A stretch of DNA of 64,000 nt from an uncultured Bacteroidaceae bacterium. Its GTDB lineage: Bacteria; Bacteroidota; Bacteroidia; Bacteroidales; Bacteroidaceae. Positions 30,528 to 55,074 of the stretch are shown one piece after another. The stretch's first letter is position 1. Each line of letters starts with the position of its first letter. The notes under the pieces are model-generated. The model did not search any database and was not told the origin of the DNA. It saw only the letters and a program-made list of their open reading frames with translations. The translations under genes and the position numbers were made by a program. The DNA lies in NCBI GenBank assembly GCA_905236065.1, contig CAJONZ010000065.1, positions 12,285-76,284 on the forward strand, given 5' to 3'.

Positions 30528-30791
30528 CTAAATGAGTCCTGCTTCTTTCCACTGAGCAACAAGTGTCTCGGCATCAGCCGTTGCCGTTGCCTCATCCACT
30601 TCGTACTCATCTAACAGGGCGCGGACAATGTCCTGCAACTCGAAATCCTTGTCCTTCACGGCATTCCATGCCAGGGCTGCCGACTCGTTCAGTGTAATCA
30701 ACTTCGTAAAATCGATGTTCTTCAAACCGTGGGCAACCACGATGTTCTCCCCACAGATGTTGCGCAATTCAAAACCTTCTTTAATTCTCAT
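30528..30791 (-). CDS. PqqD-family (RRE-like) small protein
   Basis: Start moved to ATG 30791 (MRIKEGFELRNICGENIVVAHGLKNIDFTKLITLNESAALAWNAV...), giving 87 aa. Length and pattern match PqqD-type peptide chaperones common in Bacteroidales. A CAAAATTA -7 box (minus strand) lies at 30822. Confidence 0.6.
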   Translation of the reverse strand: MRIKEGFELRNICGENIVVAHGLKNIDFTKLITLNESAALAWNAVKDKDFELQDIVRALLDEYEVDEATATADAETLVAQWKEAGLI

Positions 30792-30821
30792 AATATTCTT
30801 TTGAGTTTCTTTTATTTTTTG

Positions 30822-30829
30822 CAAAATTA
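30822..30829 (-). promoter_or_regulatory. -7 box TAATTTTG (PqqD-like/ung/PBP1A/kdsB string)
   Basis: CAAAATTA on the plus strand, 31 nt upstream of start 30791. Confidence 0.45.
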
Positions 30830-30923
30830 GCAACTTCCCCGTAAATCCGCAAAACTTTAAAGAAAAATCTTGGTTCACGTCCCTTTTCCCCACACCCACA
30901 CGCCTTTCACACATGCAAAAATG

Positions 30924-34078: not shown

Positions 34079-35404
34079 TTAGTTCCCTGTCTCCGTGGTG
34101 TTGCGCTTGGTAGGCCAGACGGCCTTTGCCCAGTCGGTTTCGTAGTATCCGGTAGCAAACCATTTGTTTCTCAGGGCATATTTCTGAAGCGGTATGTACA
34201 TGGTCACTCCACTGTATTGCAGAGGGTCAACCCTATTGTCTGAGCGATTGTTAAATACGGAATACCAATGGTCGGTATGCGCCTGACTCAAGAACATGGT
34301 AGAGAACTGAGCGTTCCAGGTTTCAAAATCCTCCTCACTGAGAGCAGCCTTCATTACGCCCCGCATGTCATAATAATCGGAGTAAGGATTTCTGTAATAA
34401 TAATCCCATTTGAAATAGTTCAGCACATTGGAATAGTCCATATTGAGCAAGGTTTCCTTGTATTGCTCAAGGTATGGCTGCGTGATGCTTGCCACATACT
34501 CCAGTTTGGAACAATCCACAGCGGACAACAGGATTCCGTAGAGTTGGTCGGTGGCATAATAATTATAATAGGCATCGGTCATTCCCTCTACGTAGCCACT
34601 GTCTGAGAACATCGGGCCAATCATCTGATGGTATGGTGCCCCCTCTCCAGGCACTTCAGCCGGAGAAGCAATGATATAGCGTGTGCAGTTGCGAAGCTGA
34701 TAGAGCACCTCTATGTTCTGCATAAAACAAGCATCAAAAAGAATGAAATCAACTGGGCCGAAATTCAGCAAAGCACGGCGCATGTCGTCGATGGAAAGCT
34801 GCGAACCAGCATTGGCCACGGTATTCAGGCCATTATCATAGCCAAAAGCACGACGAGGTTTGGCACCCCATGACTCTGAATGATTGGCATCAGCTTCCGG
34901 TTGGGGAGGAAGCCAACCGGAGCCATGTGACCAGAACACCAAGCGATAGTTCTGCGAAGGATAGTTGCCTTTAATGTATTGCAAAACACTGTCCAACACC
35001 TCGTATGAACAAGAGTTGAGGTCTTGCTCATAGGTTTTTACAGGGGTAAGACTGTTGAAACTTTCATTTTGGCTTGCGGCGGTTATGTCATAGATTTTAG
35101 GCAGTCCCGTGTTGTCGGTGTAAAGAATCAGATGGTCTGTCTCGCCGACGTTTTTCATGCCTCCCAGCATTTCGTTGATGTCCTTGGACATATTTCCTGC
35201 CAAAGAATTTTCTGCCGCCATATAAACAATGACTACCTTCCCGATTTGGGGATTGGGTTCTTCCTCTTGTTCGTCATTCTTGCAGGAAACAGCCACGAAA
35301 ACCAGCAGCAAAAGACACAAGAAAAACTTCAGACTGGCAAAAACTTCCGTCGCAGCGTTGCGAAGAAGCGGCAAGGATGTCATATATTGATTTGTCTTAT
35401 TCAT
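34079..35404 (-). CDS. C11 (clostripain-family) cysteine peptidase, lipoprotein
   Basis: Lipobox FVAVSC. VIVYMAAENSL, catalytic His in VFWSHGSGWLP and Cys in ILFDACFMQNIEV. Confidence 0.75.
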   Translation of the reverse strand: MNKTNQYMTSLPLLRNAATEVFASLKFFLCLLLLVFVAVSCKNDEQEEEPNPQIGKVVIVYMAAENSLAGNMSKDINEMLGGMKNVGETDHLILYTDNTGLPKIYDITAASQNESFNSLTPVKTYEQDLNSCSYEVLDSVLQYIKGNYPSQNYRLVFWSHGSGWLPPQPEADANHSESWGAKPRRAFGYDNGLNTVANAGSQLSIDDMRRALLNFGPVDFILFDACFMQNIEVLYQLRNCTRYIIASPAEVPGEGAPYHQMIGPMFSDSGYVEGMTDAYYNYYATDQLYGILLSAVDCSKLEYVASITQPYLEQYKETLLNMDYSNVLNYFKWDYYYRNPYSDYYDMRGVMKAALSEEDFETWNAQFSTMFLSQAHTDHWYSVFNNRSDNRVDPLQYSGVTMYIPLQKYALRNKWFATGYYETDWAKAVWPTKRNTTETGN

Positions 35405-39280: not shown

Positions 39281-42200
39281 TTACACGGTAAAATAATCAA
39301 AGCCAACGATGGTGTGAACGAAACGACGGACGTAGTCGAACGCCGTGGGTGGCCATTGAAAGCCGAAACGGTAAAGAACCTGGGTGGTATAGTCATTGTC
39401 AGACTCAATCCAGCGCATGTCGTGGCTATTGCTGAGATTGTAGGCCATCAAGGGACGGAGGAGGGTAACAAGGTCGGGATTGGACATCATTTGTTCAAGA
39501 GCCTTCTGGAAATCCTCCTTCTCCACCCGAGGAAGCTTGATACCGGCAATGGCGAAACCCGTAAGGATGTCTGCCATATACTGACGGTGGACGTTGTAGG
39601 GATGAAAAACAGTACACTCACGAGGAGTGGTTGCGAGAAGCATGATGGCATGAGCCACCTCATCGACGGGCGAGAACTCGAATACCTGACTAAGCGCTTC
39701 GTAAGGCACCATGCCAATGATAACGTAGGCACGGAGCAGGGCCAAGAAATTGTTCGTGTTGAAATTAATCTGGAACTCGCCGTCCTTCTGGCGTGCAGAT
39801 AGGTTGCCAACGCGCATAATCTTGGCATTTAGGCCTTGGTTGGCGATGGCATCGAGGACTAACTCCTCTGCCTTGTATTTGGAATAGACATATTTATTCT
39901 CGTCAATGTTTTGGCCGAGCCAAAGGTCTTGCTCCGTGAGTTTGACATCAGGACCAGGGAAACCATCGACACTGAGACCGGCAATACTGGTTGTAGAGAT
40001 ATGGATAAGACGGGAACCTGTGCGCAAACAGAAAGTGATGAGATGGCGCACAGACTCGATGTTGACCATTTCGATGTCATTGCCGGCAGAGAAGTGCTTG
40101 ACATTAGCGACGCAGTTGACAACAGTCAATTGATTGTTGAGACTATCGAAGGCTTCGGGCTTGATAACCTCGGCAGCAAAGACTTGAACGCGATTATCGA
40201 AGTGACGGAAAGCTTCGGTCTTACCAAAATAGTAGAAGTACAAGGATTTGAGTCGGCTGAAAGTCTTTTCGTCGCTCTTTGCCCGGATAGGACAGAGGAT
40301 GCGGCACTCGTAATGCAATAGCAACTCATTGAGGATGTGCATACCGAGGTAACCTGTAGCGCCTGTAAGCAATACATCGCCAATGGGCTGACGCTCGCCA
40401 TTGCGGAAAGCATCAAGAGTATTGGCTGCCAGAACCTCCCTTACTCCACATGGAAGGGAAACGACTGTACCATCATTCGCAGCGGGCAGAACGGCGGCAG
40501 CTCCTTTCCCTTGAACCCTGTCCTTTTGGGAAAGGGATACAGATTGGGGCTGTAATTTCTCTTTTGCCAAAAAGACGGCGAGAGAACGGGGAGTCTTTTG
40601 GTTGAACAAGTCGTTAAAGACAATCTGCACACCATGCTTGCCGGCCTCCACAATTACTTTGATAGCATTGAGACTGGTGCCGCCAATCTCGAAGAAGTCG
40701 TCGAGGGCACCCACTTGCTCAATGCCGAGAACCTCAGCGAAGATGTTTGCAAAAAGCTGCTCCGTTTCGCCTTCGGGAGCGACGTATTCTGTGGCACGTT
40801 TCAATTCGGGCACAGGCAGCGCCTTGCGATTAATCTTGCCGTTGGGTGTCATGGGCATGGTTTCGAGACACATGTAGGCATCAGGCACCATGAACTCAGC
40901 CAATGACGATGCAGACAGAGCAGCACGAATAGAGTCCTCACTGAGAGAAAAGCCATCAGCCACAGTATAATAAAGTACGAGATGTTCGTTGCCCATAACC
41001 TTGCGAACTTCGGCTGCTGCCTGACGGATGCCGTCTATGTTCAGTGCCTTGCTCTCGATTTCGCCGAGTTCAATGCGGAAGCCACGCAATTTCACCTGGG
41101 TATCTATGCGCCCAAGGTACTCAATCTGTCCGTCGTCGTTCCAACGGCAAAGGTCGCCCGTGTGATACATCTGGACTGGGCGCCCCCAACGGTCAGCCTC
41201 AACGAAGGGACAATCGACAAACGACTTGGCCGTGCGTTCAGGCAGTCGCCAGTAACCCCATCCCACTTGTACTCCGGCAAAGCAGAGTTCACCAGCCACC
41301 CCCTGTGGCACAAGATGTCCTGCGGTATCGACGATGAAATTCCAGTTGTTGGCAACGCTTTGGCCAATGGGAATGTTTTCCACGCGGCATCCTGGAGCAA
41401 TCCTATAATAAGAAGTGTCGTCGGTACATTCGGTAGGCCCGTAAACGTTGATTATTTCGATGCGGTCGCTAAAAACACCGTCCATTTTCTCACCACCACC
41501 GGTAATAAAGCGGATGGGCAGGTCGTCGAAGGTGTTGAGCAACAAACAAGTCATGGCTGTCGAATAGCCACCACCAGTGATGCGGTGTTCAATGAGGAAC
41601 TGACGGATGGCATTAAGATCCTTGCGGATTTCCGTCGGCATGATATGGAACGAACCGCCAAGGGTGAGCACGGGATACATGTCCTCGATGTGGGCGTCGA
41701 ACGAGAACGAACGATGGCCACTGATGCGGTCTTCGGACGTCAAATGCTCCATATCGATGACCACGGCAATGAAATTCCTCAGACCAGCCTGATGGAGCAT
41801 GGCGCCTTTCGGCTTTCCTGTGGAACCACTGGTGTAAATCATGTAAGCGAGGCCGTCAGGCTTCGACAGGTCGATGGGGACGTCCGACGAAGAACCGTCG
41901 GAAACAGTACCCTCAGCCATGAAGTCATCAATGAAGAAAGTCTTGGCTAAAGCAGTATCAAAATTCCCTTCTGCTTTTTTTGCTTCAAGTACTTCATGCG
42001 TAGTAATCAAAACCTTCGACTCGGAGTTCTCCAACATATAACTCAGACGCTCATTGGGATATTCGAAGTCAAGAGGCGTATAAGCGGCGCCAGCTTTGTG
42101 GATGGCAAGGACGGAGAGTGGAAACTCTTTGGTGCGGTCAAGCATGACGCAGACGAAATCATCGGGCTTTACACCAAAGTCGATGAGCCGATGAGCCAGT

Positions 42201-43630
42201 GCATTAGCGTAACAATCCATTTCAGCGTAAGTCAGTTGACTGTCCTTATCCACGACGGCAGGGGTATCGGGAGTCCGTTGCACCTGTTCTGTAAAGAGGT
42301 TGGCGAAAGTCTTGCTCAGATCCACGTCAATATCCTTACCCTTACCTATATGATTGATAAGATGTGCCGCTTCGTTGTCACTGACGATACTGATACTATC
42401 AATAGCATCGTCAGCATGTGCCATCATCTGCTCCATCGTGGCCTTCATTGCATCGGCCATCATGCGCATGGTTTTTCGGCTGTTCATGGCCAGGCTCGAT
42501 TCCATGCGGATGTCATAATTATCGCCCACTATGAATCTATGAGCCAGCATGTCGTAGAATACGTCGCCACGATCCTGCTGCACGAACTTACAGTGCGTAT
42601 CACCAAAGTGGTATTCCTCTTCCCAGCCGGGCAGAGCCGTAAAATTAAACGAGATTCCAGGCTGCACACCTAAGTCACGGCAGAAGTGAGAGAAGGGATA
42701 GGCCAATTGCGACAACGTGGCCTTCATTTCTGTATGGACTATAGCGATATACTCGCGCACGCTCTGCTCCTTCCGAATCTCCATCATAAAAGGAATCGTA
42801 CGCACGAACATGCCGTAAGCCTGCTTCACACGCGGATCACGACGACCATGAAAGATGGTCGTGTAGGCCACCTTCTCCTCGCGCAATAGTCGGGCAAGCA
42901 CATAGCTAAACGCTGCCTGGAATATCTGATACGGAGCAAAGCCATTTTCCTTGCACCAGTCATCCACCATTACCCGGTTGATGTAAGCAGACTCCTGCCC
43001 CATCTCGCCCACAGGATTCTCGGGCCGTACCGACAGCGTCGCCAAATCTACTCCCGCATATTTCTCTTGCATCACCGCCTTCGCCTGCTCATATTCCTTA
43101 TTGCCTAAGCAAGCAGACTCATCCTCGGCAGCCTCCAGCATTCCGTATTCCTGTACGGGAAGCGGTTTACCCTCGTATGCCAATGGCAGGTCTCGCTGTG
43201 GGAACAAGGTCAAGTAGCTTGTCCCATCGGTGACCATGTGATGAATATCGACCAACAGGTAACGCTTTTCAGGGGTGGTCACGAGCTCCACACGTATCAA
43301 CGGCTCGTCGCCCATGATATCGAATGGTCTGCAAAAGGCATGGTGGGCATAGTCTTGGAAGTCTGTCTCTGTCATCTCACGACGAACGATGGTAAGACGC
43401 TTTGTCTCATCCACATACTGCCGTGGTTCACCTTTTTCATCGATAAGGAAGCGCAAACTCAGTTCCTTGCGGGCGGCAAAAACGGTCTGCAAAGCAGCGT
43501 CCAAGCGGTTGAGGTCTATCTCGTCGTTCAATGGTACGATGCAGGGGACATTGTACTGCATGACGTGAGGAAACTTCAGACAATCGTAAAATACGCCAAG
43601 CTGAGATTGAAGCAAAGGAAAAGTAACCAT
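39281..43630 (-). CDS. Nonribosomal peptide synthetase, single module C-A-T-R
   Basis: 1449 aa.
- C domain: about nt 42326..43630, HHMVTDG at 43223..43243.
- A domain: about nt 40811..42310 (YTSGSTGKPKG, NVYGPTE, YHTGDL, GRIDTQVKLRGFRIELGEIE, NGKINRK).
- T domain: about nt 40565..40774, GGTS Ser codon at 40673..40675.
- R domain: about nt 39284..40384, TGATGYLG at 40343..40366 and YVYSK.
Motif coordinates were verified by back-translation. Confidence 0.9.
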   Translation of the reverse strand: MVTFPLLQSQLGVFYDCLKFPHVMQYNVPCIVPLNDEIDLNRLDAALQTVFAARKELSLRFLIDEKGEPRQYVDETKRLTIVRREMTETDFQDYAHHAFCRPFDIMGDEPLIRVELVTTPEKRYLLVDIHHMVTDGTSYLTLFPQRDLPLAYEGKPLPVQEYGMLEAAEDESACLGNKEYEQAKAVMQEKYAGVDLATLSVRPENPVGEMGQESAYINRVMVDDWCKENGFAPYQIFQAAFSYVLARLLREEKVAYTTIFHGRRDPRVKQAYGMFVRTIPFMMEIRKEQSVREYIAIVHTEMKATLSQLAYPFSHFCRDLGVQPGISFNFTALPGWEEEYHFGDTHCKFVQQDRGDVFYDMLAHRFIVGDNYDIRMESSLAMNSRKTMRMMADAMKATMEQMMAHADDAIDSISIVSDNEAAHLINHIGKGKDIDVDLSKTFANLFTEQVQRTPDTPAVVDKDSQLTYAEMDCYANALAHRLIDFGVKPDDFVCVMLDRTKEFPLSVLAIHKAGAAYTPLDFEYPNERLSYMLENSESKVLITTHEVLEAKKAEGNFDTALAKTFFIDDFMAEGTVSDGSSSDVPIDLSKPDGLAYMIYTSGSTGKPKGAMLHQAGLRNFIAVVIDMEHLTSEDRISGHRSFSFDAHIEDMYPVLTLGGSFHIMPTEIRKDLNAIRQFLIEHRITGGGYSTAMTCLLLNTFDDLPIRFITGGGEKMDGVFSDRIEIINVYGPTECTDDTSYYRIAPGCRVENIPIGQSVANNWNFIVDTAGHLVPQGVAGELCFAGVQVGWGYWRLPERTAKSFVDCPFVEADRWGRPVQMYHTGDLCRWNDDGQIEYLGRIDTQVKLRGFRIELGEIESKALNIDGIRQAAAEVRKVMGNEHLVLYYTVADGFSLSEDSIRAALSASSLAEFMVPDAYMCLETMPMTPNGKINRKALPVPELKRATEYVAPEGETEQLFANIFAEVLGIEQVGALDDFFEIGGTSLNAIKVIVEAGKHGVQIVFNDLFNQKTPRSLAVFLAKEKLQPQSVSLSQKDRVQGKGAAAVLPAANDGTVVSLPCGVREVLAANTLDAFRNGERQPIGDVLLTGATGYLGMHILNELLLHYECRILCPIRAKSDEKTFSRLKSLYFYYFGKTEAFRHFDNRVQVFAAEVIKPEAFDSLNNQLTVVNCVANVKHFSAGNDIEMVNIESVRHLITFCLRTGSRLIHISTTSIAGLSVDGFPGPDVKLTEQDLWLGQNIDENKYVYSKYKAEELVLDAIANQGLNAKIMRVGNLSARQKDGEFQINFNTNNFLALLRAYVIIGMVPYEALSQVFEFSPVDEVAHAIMLLATTPRECTVFHPYNVHRQYMADILTGFAIAGIKLPRVEKEDFQKALEQMMSNPDLVTLLRPLMAYNLSNSHDMRWIESDNDYTTQVLYRFGFQWPPTAFDYVRRFVHTIVGFDYFTV

Positions 43631-43651
43631 AAGCGAATCATTATTGCAATA

Positions 43652-46600
43652 TTATTCAAAGAAACCAAATCCACCAATCGCTTTCAGCATACGCTCCACA
43701 TAGTCCCAAGAGGTGGGTGAAAATGCAAAGCCAAGGCGATAAAGCACCTGCGTGGTATAGTCATTATCCCTATCCACATCGGTTGTCTTCTGTCCGTGAG
43801 CCATATCCTGATAGGCTAAAAGCGAAGCCAACTGGCGTGCTTTCTGCGGATTGTCCTTAGCGGCTTCCATCGCTTGGGCAAATTCTTCCTGTTCTACGAA
43901 CTGAATGCCATTACCCACAGTGGAAAGCCCCATGAGCACATCGCCTAGGAACTGGCTGTGAATGTTGTAGGGATGGAAGACCGTGCAGTTGGATGGCGTG
44001 GTGGCCAAAAGCACGATGGAATGGCTCACCTCATTGATGGGCGAGAACTCCACCCGCTTGTTGCGCATTGCGTATGGGCAACAACCCAGCATGTTGTAAA
44101 CCCGGATGCGCCCCATGAATGAATTGGTAGAGAAGTTGGCCTGGAACTCACCGTCGGAGGAACGGGCTGCAAGATTGCCCACACGCATAATCTTGGCTTT
44201 CAGTCCGTGATTGATAATCGCATCAAGGATGAGTCGCTCGGCCATGAACTTTGAGTAAATGTACTTGTTTCCAAGATATTGCCCCATGTATAGCCGCTGT
44301 TCGGTGAAGACTGGAGATTGGAGAGTGGCTGCACATGAATTCATCTTCGATTTTCCATCTTCAATCCACAGGCCGCGCGTACTGGCCGTAGAGATATGGA
44401 CAAGCGTGGCACCTGTCTTGATACAGAAATCCACACAGCGCTGTGCGCCGCCAATGTTCACATCCTCTATCTCCGTACCCTCAGAAAAGTGCTTGACAAT
44501 CGCAGCACAATTAAAGACCGTGGATAACGGATAGTCGATATCTGCCAACTTCTCCGTCAGGTCTTCGGTCACGTCACCAAGGATGACGTGGATGCGAGTA
44601 CCAAAAAGGGACTTGAAGGAGTCGGCAAAGTAGTAGAAGAGGAGGGTGCGCAGACGGCTCTCGGCCTTTTCCTTTGTCTTGCCACGCACCAGACAGTAGA
44701 TATGCTCTGCATCGGAATTGATCAATTCGTGCAGAATGTGAATACCCAGATATCCCGTGGCACCCGTCAGGAGCACATTACCTAACTTGCGGAGCTCACC
44801 TTTACGGAAGTTGTCGAGCGTATTCTGTTGGAGAAGGTCGTTAATGGCAGTATAGTCGAAGTCCTTCTCCGAAGGAACTGCGGACGTGGAAGACTCAGAG
44901 GGTACAGACTCGCCAGTGATGAGTTGGGCAAGCTGACGTGGAGTCGGATTGGCAAAGACATCGCCGTAGGCCACATGCAGTCCGGCTTTGTCGGCTTCAA
45001 TGATGACACGGGTTACGACCAACGAGGTACCACCCAACTCAAAGAAGTTGTCGGTAGCCCCTACCCTTTCCATCTGCAAGATGTCGGCAAAGATGTCACA
45101 GAAAGCCCGTTCGGTATCATTGCCCGGAGCCACGTATGCCGATGTGACGGCCAATTGCGGTTCGGGCAAAGCCTTCACGTCTGTCTTGCCGTTGGGGGTC
45201 ATAGGCATTTCCTTCAATTGCAAATAAGCCGTTGGCACCATGTACTGTGTCAGACTCTTGGAGATTTCAGCCTTCAATGCGTCCGGCGCAATCTCACGGT
45301 CGGCTGTGTAATAGGCACAGAGATGTTCCTTACCACCCAGTTTGCGGATGAGAATCACCACTTTCTTCATGCCTTCCACCTTCAGCATCACATTCTCTAT
45401 TTCACCCAATTCGATACGCAGGCCACGAAGTTTAATCTGATGGTCGGTACGTCCGAGTATCATGACATCTCCATCTGGCAACCACTTCGCATAGTCGCCT
45501 GACTTATAGACACGCACACCATGATAATCCACAAAGCGTTCACGGGTCATCTGGTCAAGATTATTGTAGCCACGAGCCACGCCACGGCCACCAATGTACA
45601 ATTCACCTACCACTCCTGCAGGCAACTCGTTGCCGTCGCTGTCAACCACAAACTCCTTCACGTTGAGCTGGGGCTTGCCCACAGTAACCAACTTCGCATG
45701 GGTCAGTTCCTTGTTGTTCGAGGCCACGGTAATCTCCGTCGGACCATAGCAATTGAAGATGCGGGCCTGGGTGACACTGCGCATTTTTTCCAACAGGCTT
45801 TCGCTGAACTTCTCACCACCAGCACGACATATCTTGACCTGGGAGATGGCATTGCAGAAGTCATCACTGGTGAGCCACGTCTGCCAACGGGAAGGCGTAC
45901 CCGACACCATGTTGATATGCTGTTCTTGAATGAGATGGGCCAGGTCAATCGGGTTGTTGGCTTGTTCCTCTGTAGCTACGATGAGCGTCTTGCCATTAAA
46001 ATAGGCCATACCAATGTCCTGCAAAGCTGCATCAAACGAAATGGTGGTTACGCTGAGTATGCGGTCGGCATCGGTCAGCACCCCATGGGCAAAAACGTTG
46101 GCCGGATGCCCATAGAGATAGTTGCAAATACCTTCGTGACGCAACATCACACCTTTCGGACGTCCTGTGGAGCCACTGGTATAGATTAAGTATGCGAGGT
46201 CATCGGGGGTCAGGTTCACAGAGGGTTCTGAGGACGTAGAAGAAGAAGCCAGGAGGTCTTCGACGTTGAGTACTTTCTCAGCATCGAAACCAGTGGCCTT
46301 CTCCGAGTTCTCTGTAGTGATAATATAACGTGCCTCGCTATCCTCCAAGATGAGTTTGACACGGTCTGCCGGGTATTCCGGGTCACAAGGAATATAGGCA
46401 GCCCCCGCCTTCAGCACACCGAAGAGTGCCAGGATGAGGCGGCTAGTACGCGGCAGGAGCAGGGCCACCCGGTCGCACTCCTTCACACCACGCTGATGCA
46501 GGGCGGCAGCGATGCGGTCGGTCAGTTCATCCATTTCCTGATAGGTGTATCGACCATCAATGGCCACAAGTGCCTCATGATTGGGCTGTATCTTGGCAAA

Positions 46601-49600
46601 ATGGCCGATACATTCATGGAAGAACTTGAAAGGTGCCTCACCCGTGGCCGTCTGGCGCAGGCGAGACAATTCCTCTTCCTGCTGCTTGCTTACGATAGAA
46701 AGCTGACGCACCTTGCCCTCCGGCTGTGCCATCATCCGATGGGCCACAGCCACAATACTCTCGGCCAGCGATTGTGCCAACCGTTTCGAGTACAGGGCAT
46801 CGTCGTATTGTACGACTACTCCACAAGACTCTATCTTAATGTTAATCTTGAACTTCGGTACGTTTAGTTCCAGTAATTCTTGACCTATAGGTTTCCCACC
46901 TACGGTATATTCCGACAGGACACCCACCTGATAAGCGTATGCGATGGCAGGACGGAAACCATAGTCGGAGGCAATGCGTGCAAAGGGATAGTCCTCGTGG
47001 CGCAGGGTCTCATCAAAAGTTTCACTGGTCTTCTGCAAGAACGCCCCAACCGTCACGTCCTCTACATTCAGGCCCAGGGCCAGTGTATTGACGAACATGC
47101 CCACCGTATCGGCTATCTTCAGGTTCGAGCGCCCACTGCTGACGGTGCAAAGATACACCTCGCGGTTGTTGACATAACGCGACACCACGTAGGCTGTGGC
47201 GGCAAGGAACAAGTGGGCAGGCGTTATCTCATGCTGACGGCAGAAAGCCGTAGCCTGTTCATAGTCGGGCAGACAGACTGCCTCGCCAATAAATCCCTGT
47301 TGCTCGCTTTTGGGAAGGTCTGCAGGAATCTCGCTGGCTCCTTCACACGTTTGCAACATTTCGGCAAAGAACTGCTGCGAGGCACGGAATGCTTCCCCTT
47401 CTTCAGCCCGCCGCTGGTCGGTCACGAAATCGAGGTAAGTATAGCTTTCTTTCTCCAGGGAACGGCCTTCCAGCAAATCACCAATCTGACGAATGAGCAA
47501 GTCGGCAGAACCACCGTCGAAAACCAGATGATGAACATCCATCAGCAAATGTACGCTGCACTCTGTCTTTACGACTTCAAAGCGGTAAAGTGGTGGTTGA
47601 TGCAAATTGAAGGGACGCACAAACTCGTTCTTGTAGGAGGACAATTCCTCATCCTTCATCTCCGTAACAGGTACCTCCACAGCCGTGTCGAGGGCCACCT
47701 TCTGCACGATGCCGTCGCCCTGTGTCGTGAAATACACACGCAACTCAGGATGAGCCTCCACTACACGTTTCACGGCATCAACCAGCTTGCTGGCATCCGT
47801 ACCGTCTGGATAGGACAAGAGATAAGGAATATTGTATATCGTAGAGGTAGGATTCTTCAAGCAGTCGAAATACACTCCCGTCTGAGCGTAGGAAAGCGGC
47901 GCCTCCTCTACGCTGTCCGAAGAGTCTTGACGGCTTTGTTCTTTCTTTTCCTTGATAGAGCCAAAGGAACCATCCATCATCTTTTTCAGAATTTCGTTTT
48001 CGATGCTTTGCAACGTTCCCGTCTTTACAAACGTCTTTGAATCCAGCGCCACGCCATAGCGCTTATTCACCTGCACAGCTAACTTAATGGCAGAGATGGA
48101 GGTAAGTCCGACGTAGCCCAGGACGGTCGTAATGCCGAAATCCGTGTTGCCGACAATGGCGGCGACCATGTCCTTCAGTTCCTGCTCCAACACATTCAGC
48201 GGGGCGGCAAATTCTTCACGATTCTCTCTCCCCTTCTCACTTCTTACAGGCTTCGGCAGTGCCCGCTTATTTACCTTTTGGTTCTGGTTCAGGGGGATGG
48301 CCTCAATCTGCATGGTCACGGCAGGCACCATGTAGGGCGGTTTCCTGTCAAGAATAAATTGATTGAGTTCTTCGACGTCTATCTGCTTGTCGCTGACGAT
48401 ATAGGCAGCGATGAACTTTCCGCCATTCTCCTCATCAAATGCCTGCACCGTGGCATCCTTGATGTCCGGGAACTCACGGATGACACTCTCCACTTCCTTC
48501 AGTTCGATGCGGAAGCCACGAATCTTCACCTGTCCGTCACGACGACCCACAAACTGGATGTTCCCGTCGGGCAGATAGCGCACGATGTCACCAGAACGAT
48601 AGACACGACGGTATTTTTCATTCTCCGTAAACGGATTGGTGATATACACCTCTGCCGTCTTCTCTGGACGGTTCAGATAGCCACGGCTCACCTGCGGGCC
48701 ACTAATCCAAAGTTCACCTGCTGCACCCACGGGCTGACGATGGCCCTGCGGGTCAACCACATACAGACGCATGTTGTCAAGCGGCTTGCCAATAGGAATT
48801 TCTTTCATCTTCTCCTTGACGAGGTAGGTCGTCGTAAAGATGGTACACTCCGTCGGGCCATAGCCATTGTAGAAGTTGTATTCCTTGGGAGGTGTCAGCG
48901 AAGCCAGCTTCTCACCGCCCGTGGAGAGGTGCAACAGCGAATGGTTCTCAATGCCAGTGGCAAACTGGTAAGCCACCTGCGTCGTCATGAACGAATGAGT
49001 AATACCGTTTTGCTCAAAATAATCGTTCAGAGCCACCAAGTCGAGGCGCAACTCCTCGGGAACGATGTAAAGCGTGGCACCAGACGTAAGGGCAGGATAC
49101 ATGTCCATCATACAGGCATCAAAGCCATAGCTGGCGTATGCAGCGACCCGATGCTCAGGTCTCAGGTCATAGCGACGCTGATACCAGTGGCAGAAAGCCA
49201 CCAGGTTTCCATGCGTCAGCTGACAGCCCTTCGGCACCCCTGTCGAACCAGAAGTGTAGAGAAGGATGAAAAGATTCTCCGGCTTCGGTTCCGTAGGTTG
49301 CTGTGCCACGGCAACACAACCTTCAATATCCTTCGTCAGCAAGACCTCCCCCTTGTACTCATCCACGATGGGGCGCAGTTCTTCATCCGCAATCAACAGT
49401 TTTGCTCCTGCATCCTGCATCATAAAGTTCAGGCGCTCTTTCGGATAGGTAGGGTCAAGCGGTTGGTAGGCACAACCGGCCTTGAGCACTCCGAGCGACG
49501 CAATGGCCATCCACTCACAGCGGGGAATAAGTACCGAAACTACGTCTTCGGCTCCAAGCCCCTTACCGGCAATGTAGCTTGCGATGCGGTCACTAAGGTC

Positions 49601-50992
49601 GTCCACGTCGGCGTATGTATAATGCCTATCCTTATAGACCACGGCTACGTTCTGAGCTGTAGCCTTGGCTTGGCGGCGGAACAACGAAACGATGGTCTGT
49701 GTATCGTCGTAAGGAACATCCGTCTGGTTAAACGCATCGAGTTTCTCCACCTGCGACGCCGTGGAAAGCTCCACATCACGCAAATATTCCTGGGTGAGGA
49801 AATCGTTCAGCACGGCCTCGTAACTCTCCAGGAACTGTTCAATCAGGTGTTGGGAATACTCATTGCTGTTGTATTCTGCCTTTACATGATATTTGCCACC
49901 CAAGATGAAAGTTTTGATATAAAGCGAGGCGGCCAGCGTACTGTTACAAAGGCGCACGGTCTTCATCGGTTTTCCGCACAGTTGTTCCTGGGAAAACAGA
50001 ATGCCGTGCCAAGCAAACATGGAATTGCTTTGCAGGCCAAGGTCGTTGACGACATCGCTGAAAGAATATACTTCATGTTTCCGGCAACCGCTCATCTGCT
50101 CTTGCCCCGCCTTCAGAAAGTCAATCACTTTCGTGTCACTATCGAACTTGGCATAGACGGGCAGCGTCTTCACGGTCATTCCGACGGAATGGAGGAAACG
50201 CTTGTCTGAACGTCCATTGTAAACCGTCGTGAAAAGCGACTCCTGCTCGTTATTGTATTTTGCAAGCAGATAGGCGTATGCCATTGTGAAGAAATTGCTC
50301 TTGAAAACGCCTTTCTCCTTGCAAAACGCTTCCACCTGCTCCATTGCGACATGCAACGTGCGTAGCATACTGTCCTCCGCGTGTTCTTCAATCTCCAAGT
50401 CGGGCATCAGTTGTGTGAACGTATCGCCACAGTCAAAGTTCTGGGCATACCATGCCTTGCCCTCGTCGAAAGCCTCCGTCTTGCGCAGTTCTGCCTCTGT
50501 CAGGGCTACCTCAGCCATCGTAAGGGACTCTGGGGAAAGAGTCTCACCACGATAAGCGGCATCCACGTCAGCCAGTATCACTTTCAGCGTCGTACCGTCA
50601 GCAATGATGTGGTGGGGATCCAGAAAGAAATAGAAATGTTCCTTGTCACGCAGCAGACGAATATGAAACAGGCGGTCGCCATAGATATTGAAAGGGACTA
50701 TCAGCTGCTGTTTCACTTTCTCTATGTCGTCTATCTCCTCCACTGCCAATGTAAACGTCTCGGTGTCGTCAATCGTCTGCATGGGTTCACCCTCGTCGTT
50801 CAGTTCAATTCTCGTAAACAACGTGGGATGAGCCTGAACGGCAGTTTCAATAGCCATTCGCAGCCGTTCCGCATCAAGACTTCCGTCCAATATATATAAA
50901 TAAGGTACATTATAACAAGGTTCCCCTGCATGTGCTACACACTCTACATAGAGACCATATTGCGATTTTGATAAAGGTGTTGCCGTCTTCAT
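43652..50992 (-). CDS. Nonribosomal peptide synthetase, two modules C-A-T-C-A-T-R
   Basis: 2446 aa.
- C1: about nt 49703..50992, HHIIADG at 50594..50614.
- A1: about nt 48248..49687 (YTSGSTGVPKG, NGYGPTE).
- T1: about nt 47978..48190, atypical GLTSIS with Ser codon at 48098..48100.
- C2: about nt 46628..47905, HHLVFDG at 47513..47533.
- A2: about nt 45158..46621 (YTSGSTGRPKG, NCYGPTE, NGKTDVK).
- T2: about nt 44909..45121, GGTS Ser codon at 45023..45025.
- R: nt 43655..44785, TGATGYLG at 44744..44767 and YIYSK. Confidence 0.9.
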   Translation of the reverse strand: MKTATPLSKSQYGLYVECVAHAGEPCYNVPYLYILDGSLDAERLRMAIETAVQAHPTLFTRIELNDEGEPMQTIDDTETFTLAVEEIDDIEKVKQQLIVPFNIYGDRLFHIRLLRDKEHFYFFLDPHHIIADGTTLKVILADVDAAYRGETLSPESLTMAEVALTEAELRKTEAFDEGKAWYAQNFDCGDTFTQLMPDLEIEEHAEDSMLRTLHVAMEQVEAFCKEKGVFKSNFFTMAYAYLLAKYNNEQESLFTTVYNGRSDKRFLHSVGMTVKTLPVYAKFDSDTKVIDFLKAGQEQMSGCRKHEVYSFSDVVNDLGLQSNSMFAWHGILFSQEQLCGKPMKTVRLCNSTLAASLYIKTFILGGKYHVKAEYNSNEYSQHLIEQFLESYEAVLNDFLTQEYLRDVELSTASQVEKLDAFNQTDVPYDDTQTIVSLFRRQAKATAQNVAVVYKDRHYTYADVDDLSDRIASYIAGKGLGAEDVVSVLIPRCEWMAIASLGVLKAGCAYQPLDPTYPKERLNFMMQDAGAKLLIADEELRPIVDEYKGEVLLTKDIEGCVAVAQQPTEPKPENLFILLYTSGSTGVPKGCQLTHGNLVAFCHWYQRRYDLRPEHRVAAYASYGFDACMMDMYPALTSGATLYIVPEELRLDLVALNDYFEQNGITHSFMTTQVAYQFATGIENHSLLHLSTGGEKLASLTPPKEYNFYNGYGPTECTIFTTTYLVKEKMKEIPIGKPLDNMRLYVVDPQGHRQPVGAAGELWISGPQVSRGYLNRPEKTAEVYITNPFTENEKYRRVYRSGDIVRYLPDGNIQFVGRRDGQVKIRGFRIELKEVESVIREFPDIKDATVQAFDEENGGKFIAAYIVSDKQIDVEELNQFILDRKPPYMVPAVTMQIEAIPLNQNQKVNKRALPKPVRSEKGRENREEFAAPLNVLEQELKDMVAAIVGNTDFGITTVLGYVGLTSISAIKLAVQVNKRYGVALDSKTFVKTGTLQSIENEILKKMMDGSFGSIKEKKEQSRQDSSDSVEEAPLSYAQTGVYFDCLKNPTSTIYNIPYLLSYPDGTDASKLVDAVKRVVEAHPELRVYFTTQGDGIVQKVALDTAVEVPVTEMKDEELSSYKNEFVRPFNLHQPPLYRFEVVKTECSVHLLMDVHHLVFDGGSADLLIRQIGDLLEGRSLEKESYTYLDFVTDQRRAEEGEAFRASQQFFAEMLQTCEGASEIPADLPKSEQQGFIGEAVCLPDYEQATAFCRQHEITPAHLFLAATAYVVSRYVNNREVYLCTVSSGRSNLKIADTVGMFVNTLALGLNVEDVTVGAFLQKTSETFDETLRHEDYPFARIASDYGFRPAIAYAYQVGVLSEYTVGGKPIGQELLELNVPKFKINIKIESCGVVVQYDDALYSKRLAQSLAESIVAVAHRMMAQPEGKVRQLSIVSKQQEEELSRLRQTATGEAPFKFFHECIGHFAKIQPNHEALVAIDGRYTYQEMDELTDRIAAALHQRGVKECDRVALLLPRTSRLILALFGVLKAGAAYIPCDPEYPADRVKLILEDSEARYIITTENSEKATGFDAEKVLNVEDLLASSSTSSEPSVNLTPDDLAYLIYTSGSTGRPKGVMLRHEGICNYLYGHPANVFAHGVLTDADRILSVTTISFDAALQDIGMAYFNGKTLIVATEEQANNPIDLAHLIQEQHINMVSGTPSRWQTWLTSDDFCNAISQVKICRAGGEKFSESLLEKMRSVTQARIFNCYGPTEITVASNNKELTHAKLVTVGKPQLNVKEFVVDSDGNELPAGVVGELYIGGRGVARGYNNLDQMTRERFVDYHGVRVYKSGDYAKWLPDGDVMILGRTDHQIKLRGLRIELGEIENVMLKVEGMKKVVILIRKLGGKEHLCAYYTADREIAPDALKAEISKSLTQYMVPTAYLQLKEMPMTPNGKTDVKALPEPQLAVTSAYVAPGNDTERAFCDIFADILQMERVGATDNFFELGGTSLVVTRVIIEADKAGLHVAYGDVFANPTPRQLAQLITGESVPSESSTSAVPSEKDFDYTAINDLLQQNTLDNFRKGELRKLGNVLLTGATGYLGIHILHELINSDAEHIYCLVRGKTKEKAESRLRTLLFYYFADSFKSLFGTRIHVILGDVTEDLTEKLADIDYPLSTVFNCAAIVKHFSEGTEIEDVNIGGAQRCVDFCIKTGATLVHISTASTRGLWIEDGKSKMNSCAATLQSPVFTEQRLYMGQYLGNKYIYSKFMAERLILDAIINHGLKAKIMRVGNLAARSSDGEFQANFSTNSFMGRIRVYNMLGCCPYAMRNKRVEFSPINEVSHSIVLLATTPSNCTVFHPYNIHSQFLGDVLMGLSTVGNGIQFVEQEEFAQAMEAAKDNPQKARQLASLLAYQDMAHGQKTTDVDRDNDYTTQVLYRLGFAFSPTSWDYVERMLKAIGGFGFFE

Positions 50993-51051: not shown

Positions 51052-52428
51052 TTACCATTTCGTTGAAAAGATTTTAGGAGAGAAGTTCACAGAGAACCAT
51101 CCCCATCGAAGGTTACCGTCACCACGATCACGTTTCAGTCTTTCCATGGATTCGGAACCTGTCATATAAGTGAAACCCGCCGAGAAACTAACCAGGTCTT
51201 GCAGTTTATAAGATGCCGTCACCTCTATCTCATGGCCAAGCGTCATGTCCATGTCTTCAAGTTTCGTTGCCATGGCCAGATAATGGTAGGCCACACCGAT
51301 ATGCAGATTCTTGACAGGCTTGACGAAAGCACCGACAAAGGCATTCTGCAAACCCGGAGAGAAAGTATTGACGAAATTGCTGAGGTAGAAAAAGTCCATG
51401 GCACCATAGAACTTATGCTGAGAACCATAGACTGGCAGGAAATATTTTATTTTTTCATGCTTGGGCATTCCTAACGTTCCCGGTTTGGGCACAGGCATGT
51501 AGTCGTCACCACTCAGGTAGTCAAAACCCACTTGGAAACCAAACATGTCCCGGGGGGTCCAGGTAGCCAGGCCGCTGGCCATCCAAGCATCAATTTCAGC
51601 CCCTTCCTCGTTCCGGCCCATCTGCCGATAGTAGGAACCCTCTACCGACCAACGCTTGGGACGGAAGGAAATATATCCACCCACCACCTGCTGGTATTCT
51701 ATATGGGGAGCATAATCATTCTTTCCGCCTTCATAGCCCGCTTGCATACCCACATTCATTCCAAGCAACGACACACCCAGAGGCACCTTGGGCACATCGT
51801 AGTGATACCAAAGCGTATGCATCGTCTTGTAAGGCTGCACCCCGTTTTCCTTATTATAATAGGTACCGCCATCGACATTATTCGAATTTTGGTTATAGGC
51901 CAGAATGGCGTGAGCCTTATGGCCATGTCCCTCATAGCCCAGTTTGAACACATCGTGCGCAAGGGCGGTCATGGCCCAGTCGTTGGGGCCAATGATGCGC
52001 TCGTCGTCGTAGGCCAGAGCCTGACGACCCATTTGCATGAAAAGGCCCGTCTTGTCCGAAAGCTTTGCCCAAGCCTCAGAAAGGCTGAGGGCATTGTTTC
52101 CTTTCATGCCCCAGACACCCAAACTCTGTGCCACGACTTTGGCCTCCACGGCAAAACGGTTCAACGGTTTCTCCGCCGAAGCGAAATTCTTCCGAAAGTC
52201 CACGGTCAATCGTGCACGGTTCATCAAGAACTTAGCCTCGTTCTCCTTTTCCGAATCCCCATCACCTTCCCTGATCATTCCGCCGTTCCGAAGCTCACCG
52301 TGAGTCAGCATTTGCAAACCAATGTCAAATTGGTTTTCCTTATCTGCCTGCTGTCCCCACGCCGTAATTGGTAAAAGCAATACAACGGCCAAGCAACAGG
52401 GACGTATAAAAAACCTGTTGTGTTTCAT
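51052..52428 (-). CDS. Alginate-export (AlgE-like) family outer-membrane beta-barrel
   Basis: 458 aa with a signal peptide (LLLPITAWGQQ). MGRQALAYDDERIIGPNDWAMTALAHDVFKL resembles the GRQ...RliG..dW...r.fDg signature of the alginate-export family. Amphipathic strands throughout; aromatic C-terminus STKW. Confidence 0.6.
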   Translation of the reverse strand: MKHNRFFIRPCCLAVVLLLPITAWGQQADKENQFDIGLQMLTHGELRNGGMIREGDGDSEKENEAKFLMNRARLTVDFRKNFASAEKPLNRFAVEAKVVAQSLGVWGMKGNNALSLSEAWAKLSDKTGLFMQMGRQALAYDDERIIGPNDWAMTALAHDVFKLGYEGHGHKAHAILAYNQNSNNVDGGTYYNKENGVQPYKTMHTLWYHYDVPKVPLGVSLLGMNVGMQAGYEGGKNDYAPHIEYQQVVGGYISFRPKRWSVEGSYYRQMGRNEEGAEIDAWMASGLATWTPRDMFGFQVGFDYLSGDDYMPVPKPGTLGMPKHEKIKYFLPVYGSQHKFYGAMDFFYLSNFVNTFSPGLQNAFVGAFVKPVKNLHIGVAYHYLAMATKLEDMDMTLGHEIEVTASYKLQDLVSFSAGFTYMTGSESMERLKRDRGDGNLRWGWFSVNFSPKIFSTKW

Positions 52429-52869: not shown

Positions 52870-55074
52870 TCATTCTCCAATCCTCTTCCTCAACGTCAAT
52901 ATATTCTTACCATCCACCCGCTCATAATTGATGCTGTCCATCAAATTCCTGACAAGGTGAATGCCTAATCCTCCTATCGGTCTCTCTTCCACAGACAATG
53001 TAGTATCTACCTGAAGCGCCTTCGTCGGGTCGAAAGGCACACCCGAATCAACAATGATAAACTTCAGCCAATGCCTGTCAGACTTGGCAAAGAGGGTGAT
53101 ACTGCCTTCCACTCCGATGGGATAGGCATAGTTCATCACATTGACCACAGCCTCTTCCACTGCCAATCGGACATTGCCCGCCAACTTTGCCTCCATATCC
53201 AGTTGAGTGGTCACATCCTTGATAAAGGTGTTCAACTGCTCTATCTTACGCAGGTCGTTCGTCAACGTCAGCGTCTCCGACAGCACATCCTGCTCCGTTT
53301 CCGGCGAGTAGAGTATGGCCAGCATGGTCAAGTCGTCACTTTGCTCTGCGTTTTCCACAAACGAATCCACAGCACCAGTCATCGTCTGCAACAGAAGATG
53401 AGGACGATTTTCAGGACTGCATGGCTGTAGCACCCCCTTGACCCTTTCCTCTCCAAACTGCTTATGCTGAAGATTCTTTGCCTCCGTCAGTCCGTCGGTG
53501 TATAAAAACAGCAGTGAGCCTGGCCGAAGCATGTATTCTTGCGCCTCATATTTCACATCCTCAAAGATGCCGACAGGCAGGTTGGGCTTTGCATCCAACA
53601 CTTCAGCCGTTCCCTTGCCCTGGGACATCCAGTCGCGGACAATCAACGGACGGTCATGACCGGCATTGCAATAGCGCAGTCGTCCCGTAGGCAAGTCGAG
53701 CACACCTAAGAAGAGCGTGACAAACATATTCGACTCGTTGCCATGACAGGAAGTCGCATTGATATCCTGCATCATGCGGGCAGGATTGTTTTCATGGGCC
53801 GAGGCAGAACGGAACAAAGAATGCGTTACCGCCATCAGCATGGCCGACGGAACACCTTTGCCACTCACGTCGCCGATGCAGAAAAACAGTTTCTCGTCGC
53901 GCAGGAAGAAGTCGAAAAGGTCGCCACCTACCTCACGGGCAGGCACCAACGAACCGGCCACACCGACGTCGCTCCGCATGATACTGTTCTCCCGTGGCAA
54001 CATCTGCGTCTGGATATCCTTTGCAATGCGTAGTTCGCTGCTAATCCGCTCCTGCTCCATCTCCGTCTCCTGCAACCGGCGCTGACTCCGTGCAAACAAC
54101 TGGATAATGAAGCCTAACACCACAAGGCCCGCCAAGGCCATCAACATGATATTGCCCCGCATCTGGTCCAGCTTGCCGAACGCTTCGTCGTCATAGCACA
54201 CGACCACCATCAGCCAACGGGGACTCTTCTTCTTCACAGCATAATACACATGGCCCGCATCCCCTCTCTCATCAACGAACGGAAAGCCTGTCACACGCCC
54301 ATTAACCCTTTCCTCCTTCACCACCGTGCTGTCATTCACCATGTTGACAATCTGCTGAACCAACTGCGGACTGGCCAAACTGTCTGCCGGACCGGCAATC
54401 AACTCGCCCGAATCTCCCATGACCAACGTGAAGGAAGAAGGGTAACGATGGTTCATGTTCACCACCTCGCCAATCCAGTCAATGTCGAGGTCAACAGCCA
54501 GCACGGCCACGGGCGTACCGCTTTCATCCTTTATGGGCATAGCATACGTGGTGACGACAGTCTGTGCGCCCTCTGCATCCAAATAGGCCGGCGACCAGTT
54601 GGTGATTTCGCCTTTCATGGCCAACTGATAGGGAAGCATTTGTGTATAGTCGTGCTTCTCTGAACCGATTTGCACCAAACAGGCATCATCCTCCGTCTGA
54701 CGGGCGTAGGGTTCATAAAGCCGCCCTTTCAATGGGTAATAATAAGGTTTGAAAGCAAGGGCAGCCCCGATGATGTTGTCGTGCTCATCCTTCACCATGT
54801 TGTAAAGCAACTGGTTCAAGTGTTCAGGGTCATCCAAGTTGGCCTCCACATGCCACTGTTGGTTACAGACAGCCACTTCTGCCATCGACATGATTTCCTG
54901 GATGCGAAGCGCCGAGGTAACCAACTCGAAAAAAGCACTCTTTTCCAGTTCCCTCTCCATCAGCTCCCGCGTATATTGGTAGCGGACGAGAGAGATAACC
55001 TCCAACAGCACAGCTGCCAGGATGACGATAACGAGCATGGCTCGTTTCCTTAACCACTCGAAAAGCTTTTTCAT
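52870..55074 (-). CDS. Membrane sensor: Cache-like extracytoplasmic domain, PP2C (SpoIIE/RsbU) phosphatase and RsbW-like HATPase kinase, fused
   Basis: 734 aa. Two TM helices flank a domain of about 270 aa with Cache-like features. PP2C motifs FCIGDVSGKGVPSAMLMA, LFLYTDGLTEA and SDDLTMLAI. The C-terminal 130 aa carry AVEEAVVNVMNYAY (N box), IVDSGVPFDP and IGGLGIHLVRNLMD (G boxes). A CAAAGGTA -7 box lies at 55095. Confidence 0.8.
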   Translation of the reverse strand: MKKLFEWLRKRAMLVIVILAAVLLEVISLVRYQYTRELMERELEKSAFFELVTSALRIQEIMSMAEVAVCNQQWHVEANLDDPEHLNQLLYNMVKDEHDNIIGAALAFKPYYYPLKGRLYEPYARQTEDDACLVQIGSEKHDYTQMLPYQLAMKGEITNWSPAYLDAEGAQTVVTTYAMPIKDESGTPVAVLAVDLDIDWIGEVVNMNHRYPSSFTLVMGDSGELIAGPADSLASPQLVQQIVNMVNDSTVVKEERVNGRVTGFPFVDERGDAGHVYYAVKKKSPRWLMVVVCYDDEAFGKLDQMRGNIMLMALAGLVVLGFIIQLFARSQRRLQETEMEQERISSELRIAKDIQTQMLPRENSIMRSDVGVAGSLVPAREVGGDLFDFFLRDEKLFFCIGDVSGKGVPSAMLMAVTHSLFRSASAHENNPARMMQDINATSCHGNESNMFVTLFLGVLDLPTGRLRYCNAGHDRPLIVRDWMSQGKGTAEVLDAKPNLPVGIFEDVKYEAQEYMLRPGSLLFLYTDGLTEAKNLQHKQFGEERVKGVLQPCSPENRPHLLLQTMTGAVDSFVENAEQSDDLTMLAILYSPETEQDVLSETLTLTNDLRKIEQLNTFIKDVTTQLDMEAKLAGNVRLAVEEAVVNVMNYAYPIGVEGSITLFAKSDRHWLKFIIVDSGVPFDPTKALQVDTTLSVEERPIGGLGIHLVRNLMDSINYERVDGKNILTLRKRIGE

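Follow-up and report, generated by a model that had tools for sequence, protein, structure and literature searches.

A stand-alone C-A-T-R synthetase with an acidic specificity pocket in uncultured rumen Bacteroidales, predicted to release an N-acyl amino aldehyde or alcohol

A 64,000-nucleotide (nt) stretch of DNA from an uncultured Bacteroidaceae bacterium (GenBank assembly GCA_905236065.1, contig CAJONZ010000065.1, positions 12,285 to 76,284; hereafter the window) carries a gene for a single-module nonribosomal peptide synthetase (NRPS). The encoded protein begins with a condensation (C) domain, continues with adenylation (A) and thiolation (T) domains and ends with its own thioester reductase (R) domain, and its gene lies directly downstream of a second, bimodular NRPS gene. 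The locus raises the question of whether so compact an enzyme makes a product by itself and, if so, from which amino acid. The gene and its domains are as follows, with residue numbers in amino acids (aa).

39281 to 43630, minus strand: stand-alone C-A-T-R NRPS gene, 1449 aa (open reading frame (ORF) list, translation and Pfam)
42359 to 43621, minus strand: N-terminal condensation domain, aa 4-424 (Pfam; HHMVTDG at 43223-43243)
40808 to 42295, minus strand: adenylation domain, aa 446-941 (Pfam and pocket alignments)
40577 to 40753, minus strand: thiolation (carrier) domain (Pfam PP-binding 960-1018; GGTSL at 40670-40684)
39290 to 40375, minus strand: terminal thioester reductase domain, aa 1086-1447 (Pfam NAD_binding_4 and Epimerase; TGATGYLG at 40343-40366, YVYSK at 39878-39892)

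The initial annotation of this stretch, made by inspection of the letters, had described a single-module C-A-T-R enzyme, and Pfam searches of the 1449-aa protein bore this out. Condensation (PF00668, aa 4-424, E 5e-45), AMP-binding (PF00501, aa 446-794, E 3e-67), PP-binding (PF00550, aa 960-1018, E 3e-9) and NAD_binding_4 (PF07993, aa 1088-1329, E 1.5e-29) domains were detected in that order, so that every component of a C-A-T-R termination module (C, A, carrier and terminal reductase) is present. The catalytic motifs are also intact. The C domain possesses the HHxxxDG active site as HHMVTDG (aa 130-136), the A domain retains the core motif TSGSTGKPKG together with Asp235 and Lys517, and the T domain displays the phosphopantetheine serine (Ser986) within GGTSL. 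The R domain contains both motifs typical of short-chain dehydrogenases/reductases, TGATGYLG (GxxGxxG) and YVYSK (YxxxK). Against curated models, the A domain scored above the cut-off of TIGR01733 (342.9 bits vs 317.4); the R domain matched TIGR01746 with an E-value of 8e-41, at a score (140.5 bits) below the cut-off of 213.35. Purifying selection is strong on all four domains, with nonsynonymous divergence (dN) of 0.08-0.18, saturated synonymous divergence (dS) and, where dS could be calculated, an omega of 0.03-0.11, the values for the C, A and R domains lying at 0.03-0.08.

The same annotation had placed the gene 21 nt from the bimodular synthetase and had called the T-R portions of the two enzymes paralogues. 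Both statements held: the gap spans 43631-43651, and the T-R regions of the window's two synthetases share 44% identity across 507 aa (E 4e-150), with the C-terminal signature DNDYTTQVLYR(L/F)GF present in both.

The identity of the activated amino acid was approached through the specificity-conferring pocket of the A domain. Pocket residues were extracted in three ways: by pairwise MAFFT alignment, by anchoring on the motifs FDxxxxD, GGE and YGPTE, and by hmmalign against a profile that combined GrsA with 150 diverse A domains. Numbering followed GrsA residues 234-526, verified as 100% identical to 1AMU with the same chain numbering. The resulting code is DAEGTGVDDK (D235, A236, E239, G278, T299, G301, V322, D330, D331, K517), encoded by the following codons.

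41696-98, 41693-95, 41684-86, 41567-69 and 41501-03, minus strand: pocket codons for D235, A236, E239, G278 and T299
41495-97, 41444-46, 41420-22, 41417-19 and 40835-37, minus strand: pocket codons for G301, V322, D330, D331 and K517

All ten residues had been assigned by hand in the initial annotation and were reproduced by each of the three methods. The profile alignment was the check that the annotation itself had named as liable to place non-acidic residues in the pocket; E239, D330 and D331 remained in position. The code is, moreover, unchanged in 110 of 111 monomodular homologues subjected to motif-anchored extraction.

Comparison with the characterised codes in the supplement of PMC12283262 (Tables S9-S12 and S21, to which the following statements are limited) gave this set of acidic residues a context. 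E239 dominates in lysine and arginine codes and in many ornithine (Orn) codes. Arginine codes group as D[AV]ED[IVL]GA[VI][TD]K and lysine codes as DAE[DS]IGT..K, MxcG being an example of the latter (DAEDIGTVVK). The D330-D331 pair is confined, in those tables, to codes for diaminobutyrate (Dab) and diaminopropionate (Dap), namely DIWELTADDK and its relatives; D330 without D331 occurs in one lysine code, that of ThaA, and D331 alone is frequent in non-basic codes including those for glutamate and glutamine. The pocket-floor positions that bind the side-chain cation are 239 and 278 for Lys and Arg and 330 and 331 for Dab and Dap, and the enzyme presents acidic residues within both sets (E239; D330 and D331). 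Read against these tables, DAEGTGVDDK unites two patterns, the E239 seen with long cationic substrates and the aspartate pair seen with short diamino acids, and it is without counterpart among the characterised codes compared. Gly278 and Gly301 should deepen the pocket, and three carboxylates on the floor of such a pocket would suit a long cationic side chain. The wider A-domain clade contains comparably acidic codes, for example DAEGTGENDK, DADGTGLDDK and DAEC[CV]GTVDK.

Clustering of neighbouring ORFs revealed no conserved precursor-supply genes near the stand-alone genes, which would favour an amino acid drawn from primary metabolism (Arg, Lys, Orn or His). We consider a cationic substrate the most likely reading of the pocket and a probable one.

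How widely is this module distributed, and in what company? More than 110 clusters of C-A-T-R homologues at 76-82% identity were found in a large protein database, the named clusters being labelled as Prevotella, Muribaculaceae or Bacteroidaceae metagenome-assembled genomes (MAGs). GGTS[IL] is retained in 109 of 110 homologues and HHxxxDG in 99 of 110. When one genome per species was scanned, 80 loci were recovered, all from ruminant gastrointestinal MAGs (cattle, yak, buffalo, sheep, goat and deer) assigned to Prevotellaceae, Bacteroidales or Sodaliphilus; no isolate genome was among the 80. The family is restricted to ruminant-gut Bacteroidales MAGs.

Annotation of all NRPS ORFs of the fetched loci revealed that the DAEGTGVDDK module is invariably the last, immediately before the R domain. 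It occurs in 39 stand-alone C-A-T-R genes, in 22 bimodular enzymes with the order DVEFSAGI[LI]K - DAEGTGVDDK, in further bimodular combinations, and at the end of several trimodular enzymes and one four-module enzyme. Among the trimodular proteins, four (from loci L030, L039, L050 and L073) have the layout x - DAQSRGCVAK - DAEGTGVDDK - R, where x is the first module. Twenty-three stand-alone loci had a full 10 kb of upstream flank, and in 20 of these no NRPS lay within that 10 kb. An upstream multimodular NRPS, as in the window, was found only in L020 (bimodular) and in L001 and L025 (trimodular, with one intervening gene). The initial annotation had drawn attention to two reductive release events in one operon; this is true of the window, but is an unusual arrangement for the family.

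Conserved accessory genes were likewise absent, the most frequent neighbour family in ORF clustering being present in at most 7 of 32 stand-alone loci. PNPOx-like and PAP2 neighbours were considered and rejected as local synteny inside one subclade, and an exporter of the SMR (small multidrug resistance) family was rejected as the property of a single genome. The latter lies at 8723-9049 on the plus strand of L083/L084, about 1 kb upstream of the stand-alone gene in one Muribaculaceae-labelled MAG; SMR exporters of the EmrE/Gdx-like type carry lipophilic cations or guanidinium.

We sought to understand how the stand-alone enzyme relates to the terminal modules of the longer synthetases. An end-to-end BLAST alignment, giving 64% identity to module 2 plus R of bimodular relatives, first suggested that it was a split-off second module. 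Comparison domain by domain led us to reject such a simple split, since identity to the counterpart fell to about 31% in the C domain. Relative to the terminal module of multimodular relatives, identity was 31-32% for C, 86% for A, 68-70% for T and 77% for R; within the stand-alone group the corresponding values were 81%, 86.5%, 80% and 80%. In a sliding 30-aa comparison with module 2 of three relatives (P0115, P0112 and P0117), identity rose from 10-40% to 60-100% at residues 391-421, which places the boundary as follows.

42371 to 42463, minus strand: approximate site of recombination, aa 390-420, at which the swapped C domain gives way to the shared A-T-R region (sliding identity)

Compared with the remaining C domains of the family in the fetched loci, N-terminal and internal ones alike, the stand-alone C domain shows about 30% identity, and it constitutes a lineage distinct from every one of them. 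An exhaustive search of representative proteins revealed its closest relatives at 35-45% identity, and 25 of the 26 match at the N-terminus of their protein. Most of these are monomodular C-A-T(-R) proteins of 1200-1450 aa from Prevotella or Bacteroidaceae MAGs, and the proteins that carry the closest relatives have related acidic codes such as DAEC[CV]GTVDK. The sole internal case is P0162 (1920 aa), in which a fatty-acid-CoA-ligase-like domain and a carrier precede a C domain (39% identity) and an A domain with the code DAECVGTVDK; this is a possible fused lipo-initiation module, and may hint at the type of donor used by this C clade.

The step at the C-A boundary shows, at the level of sequence, that the stand-alone enzyme arose by fusion of a starter-position C domain to the A-T-R cassette of a terminal module. 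Judging by these identities, the cassette shared with multimodular relatives is a more informative paralogy than the T-R pair of the window.

Together these observations lead to a mechanism in which the protein, from an uncultured, Prevotellaceae-like member of the rumen Bacteroidales, would act as a self-sufficient NRPS of one module, with the order starter C-A-T-R, making an N-acyl amino aldehyde or alcohol. We hold this reading as an even call. The A domain, with its three acidic residues and deep, glycine-lined pocket, would adenylate a cationic alpha-amino acid and load it onto the T domain; Arg, Lys and Orn are the prime candidates, His or Dab being less likely. The N-terminal C domain would serve as a starter C, N-acylating the tethered amino acid with an acyl-CoA or an acyl carried on an acyl carrier protein (ACP) from primary metabolism. 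The R domain, using NAD(P)H, would then release the product reductively as an N-acyl amino aldehyde, which may be reduced further to the alcohol. Substrate identity, acyl donor, product oxidation state and any protease-inhibitor role are matters that we infer. The C domain is placed as expected for a starter, at the N-terminus with no carrier upstream of it in the protein, and the ORF opens at the first C core motif. The scarcity of upstream NRPS genes at stand-alone loci, together with the distinct C domain, suggests that the enzyme most likely acts alone; beside the bimodular synthetase, the window's gene would most likely provide the island with a second product made independently of the first.

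Several observations weigh against this mechanism, and the alternatives build on them. Among solved structures, the C domain matches best those of elongation type (TycC, LgrA), and no classical lipo-starter C domain was found among its hits; the starter role is consequently read from position and relatives rather than from a subtype model. No acyl-activating gene (acyl ligase), ACP or phosphopantetheinyl transferase (PPTase) was detected within the genomic island described below. A multimodular NRPS stands directly upstream in the window as in L020, L001 and L025. The outcome of release, aldehyde or alcohol, is unreadable from R-domain sequence (PMC8024701). Lastly, within the PMC12283262 tables the best match of DAEGTGVDDK to any characterised code is 6 of 10 positions, at which two arginine codes (DAESVGAVDK, DAEDLGFVDK) tie with a glutamine code (DAQDLGVVDK) and a glutamate code (DAKDIGVVDK), and no cationic code (Lys, Arg, Orn or Dab) in those tables matches at 8 or more positions.

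This tie qualifies the claim of the initial annotation that acidic residues at 239, 330 and 331 mark a cationic substrate: the E239 and D330-D331 patterns make the claim reasonable, while the nearest codes leave Gln and Glu level with Arg. The acidic residues might instead hydrogen-bond a neutral polar side chain (Gln- or Asn-like, or hydroxylated) or an unusual amino acid. D331 is common in Glu and Gln codes, and E239 does occur in one Gln code (DAEYLGTVTK). Nevertheless, E239 belongs mainly to Lys, Arg and Orn codes, D330 appears in the tables compared solely in Dab/Dap codes and the one Lys code already mentioned, the three floor carboxylates with Gly278 and Gly301 would better fit a long cationic chain, and related A domains of the clade are still more acidic (DAEGTGENDK). 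A non-cationic substrate is accordingly unlikely in our estimation, if a serious competitor. A different objection concerns autonomy. The C domain could accept an (acyl-)dipeptidyl or aminoacyl chain from the neighbouring bimodular NRPS, so that the protein would operate as a trans-acting terminal module and yield an (acyl-)tripeptide aldehyde. Both genes are on the same strand with 21 nt between them, the four trimodular proteins introduced above unite a DAQSRGCVAK and a DAEGTGVDDK module in one chain, and in two of these (L039 and L050) modules 1-2 are 66-68% identical to the first two modules of the window's bimodular enzyme. That enzyme retains an R domain of its own, however, and the stand-alone C domain shares only about 31% identity with the internal C that links these modules, diverging from it up to the breakpoint at aa 390-420. 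The protein also has no docking extension, its ORF beginning at the first C core motif, and most stand-alone loci have no NRPS upstream from which a chain could be accepted. We regard the trans arrangement as distinctly improbable.

Two further possibilities concern the fate of the product. MxcG-type C-A-T-R enzymes yield alcohols, and the R domain here might similarly carry out a four-electron reduction, giving an N-acyl amino alcohol of lipid-like or signalling character rather than an electrophilic aldehyde, and hence no protease inhibitor. R domains of either outcome are indistinguishable by sequence (PMC8024701), and the falcitidin NRPS of Bacteroidetes gives aldehydes as well as alcohols; set against this, related R-terminated NRPSs of gut commensals have been reported to release aldehydes (PMC12327764). 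Exclusive alcohol formation is, on this balance, a minority prospect, about as unlikely as a non-cationic substrate. Far less credible is a vestigial C domain, with the protein behaving as a minimal A-T-R enzyme whose free amino aldehyde would cyclise or dimerise to a pyrazine or cyclic imine. Free basic amino aldehydes do cyclise easily. Pyrazine-forming minimal A-T-R enzymes exist (PMC7586950). The C domain is nevertheless full length and 81% conserved with dN/dS of about 0.05-0.08, and its HHxxxDG motif persists in all but 11 of 110 homologues; we consider its redundancy very improbable.

The surroundings of the gene were considered next to these readings. The relevant features of the island are given below.

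43652 to 50992, minus strand: bimodular C-A-T-C-A-T-R NRPS, 2446 aa (Pfam; codes DAMFSGGIFK and DAQSRGCVAK)
51052 to 52428, minus strand: AlgE-like outer-membrane beta-barrel, 458 aa (Pfam Alginate_exp, E 1.5e-8)
52870 to 55074, minus strand: dCache-SpoIIE (PP2C)-HATPase_c_2 sensor/regulator, 734 aa (Pfam)

The two codes of the bimodular enzyme were obtained with the same alignment methods. A full-text literature search returned no paper containing any of the three specificity codes. Within the bimodular enzyme, the second A domain (aa ~1653-1945, DAQSRGCVAK) has an arginine at pocket position 299. Its charge logic is the reverse of that seen in the stand-alone pocket and is suggestive of an acidic substrate, which recalls the Glu-derived aldehyde of ruminopeptin.

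Homologues of the AlgE-like barrel are found beside NRPSs of the family in 7 of 82 loci, two of which (L003 and L026) are stand-alone loci, and homologues of the dCache-SpoIIE-HATPase protein in 13 of 82, L002 also having one. The barrel is a candidate exporter and the sensor a candidate regulator of the island. As both recur with the family, the island is taken to extend over approximately 39.3-55.1 kb. SmpB, upstream of it, is a housekeeping or non-conserved neighbour. Downstream, genes for GAPDH, MscL, a sigma-70 factor and a C11 peptidase were evaluated as conserved neighbours and rejected, as they do not recur across loci.

The C11 peptidase is a cysteine peptidase of the clostripain family, encoded at 34079-35404 on the minus strand, about 4 kb from the stand-alone synthetase. 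Clostripain-type enzymes are Arg-specific and leupeptin-sensitive. Its closeness is probably coincidental, given that it is not conserved beside the NRPS. Further observations from the flanks concern a 128-aa ORF at 30528-30914 (minus strand), which matches PqqD (E 4e-15), a fold common as the recognition element for peptides of the ribosomally synthesised and post-translationally modified class (RiPPs), and an ORF of at least 692 aa at 1-2076 (minus strand), running off the window start and matching A-domain queries (AMP-binding type) some 37 kb from the island. In one stand-alone locus, L001/L025, the C-A-T-R gene is closely followed by genes for a 4'-phosphopantetheinyl transferase (ACPS; 15343-15900, minus strand) and a Zn-peptidase.

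What might such an enzyme mean for the rumen? Thousands of rumen NRPS clusters have been catalogued, and expression of Prevotella NRPSs in the cattle rumen is documented (PMC8241843). Our literature searches found no characterised product for any Prevotella, rumen or Bacteroidales NRPS. A wider proposal, which we put forward tentatively and rate below the mechanism itself, is that rumen Bacteroidales hold a widespread class of leupeptin-like lipo-amino or lipo-peptide aldehydes with a basic P1 residue, built on a mobile A-T-R cassette and modulating Arg/Lys-specific proteases. The cassette would be placed either behind a starter C, so that a single gene would suffice for a molecule of the N-acyl argininal or lysinal type, or behind one to three modules. 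If this were so, the products would modulate proteases of the clostripain, gingipain or trypsin type and thereby rumen protein breakdown. Should the product be an N-acyl basic amino aldehyde, inhibitors with a basic P1 would join the known gut-microbial peptide aldehydes, and a microbial control on Arg/Lys proteolysis in the rumen would touch ruminant nitrogen use. With a length of 4.3 kb and no accessory genes conserved around it, the window's gene offers a compact entry point consisting of a single gene. In addition, the clean exchange of the C domain ahead of a conserved A-T-R region is an example from nature of modules recombining at the C-A linker, and as such of use in engineering NRPSs.

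A comparison with known systems places the enzyme among several partial precedents. R-terminated NRPSs of gut commensals are reported to release peptide aldehydes with protease-inhibitor activity (PMC12327764). The window's enzyme resembles them in being R-terminated and C-first, in its anaerobic gut host and in a predicted (N-acyl) peptide aldehyde-like product, and their C-A-T-C-A-T-R layout is shared by the neighbouring 2446-aa gene. For the most part they have two modules and come from clostridia, and their aldehydes are hydrophobic or derived from Glu, in contrast to a single-module, acidic-pocket enzyme of Bacteroidales found only in the rumen; this comparison was by description rather than by sequence clade. 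Dipeptide-aldehyde NRPSs of this kind were reportedly described by Guo et al. in Cell in 2017 and, with ruminopeptin (rup), by Schneider and Balskus in 2018.

Among enzymes with the same domain order, MxcG of myxochelin biosynthesis shares C-A-T-R, reductive release and a cationic (Lys) substrate bound with E239 (DAEDIGTVVK). The window's enzyme nonetheless scores 369 bits against NF038078 (cut-off 2300), the two codes share 5 of 10 positions, and the donor for MxcG is supplied by an aryl carrier protein belonging to a dihydroxybenzoate (DHB) pathway, genes for which are missing from the window's island. NpsB and TomB of pyrrolobenzodiazepine pathways also combine C-A-T-R order with reductive release, and the C domain of TomB is among the solved-structure matches of the window's C domain (8qnf, E 1.5e-7). 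Enzymes of the NpsB/TomB type activate a proline derivative, and their anthranilate donor is delivered by a discrete A-T protein, a partner not found near the window gene. HamD of the fragin pathway was considered as another C-A-T-R precedent and rejected, as it is an A-T-R protein with a separate starter C. The best NCBIfam match of the window's enzyme is to the aureusimine synthetase AusA (NF047350, 616 bits vs a cut-off of 2500); its order is A-T-C-A-T-R, unlike the C-A-T-R seen here, and the two are not equivalogs. The closest solved T-R didomain is 6VTJ, from the peptidyl carrier protein (PCP)-R region of Mru_0351 of a rumen methanogen (E 2e-68).

The likeness to leupeptin-type argininals (acetyl-Leu-Leu-argininal) is confined to the proposed chemistry and would apply if the substrate is Arg or Lys, the product then being an N-acyl (peptidyl) basic amino aldehyde; in the bi- and trimodular relatives the residue selected by DAEGTGVDDK would sit at P1 after other residues. 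In gammaproteobacteria, leupeptin biosynthesis relies on discrete ligases together with a reductase, and no C-A-T-R NRPS is known to take part. Within the phylum Bacteroidetes, the falcitidin/pentapeptide-aldehyde NRPS of Chitinophaga has a starter C adding a short acyl group and a terminal reductase. It produces both aldehyde and alcohol, and is a single-gene cluster lacking conserved tailoring genes, like the window family; it differs in its five modules, in having Phe at P1 and in coming from soil Chitinophaga rather than rumen Bacteroidales. The class of chemistry is known, and what is new is the DAEGTGVDDK code, its rumen-wide distribution and the recombination between a starter C and an A-T-R cassette.

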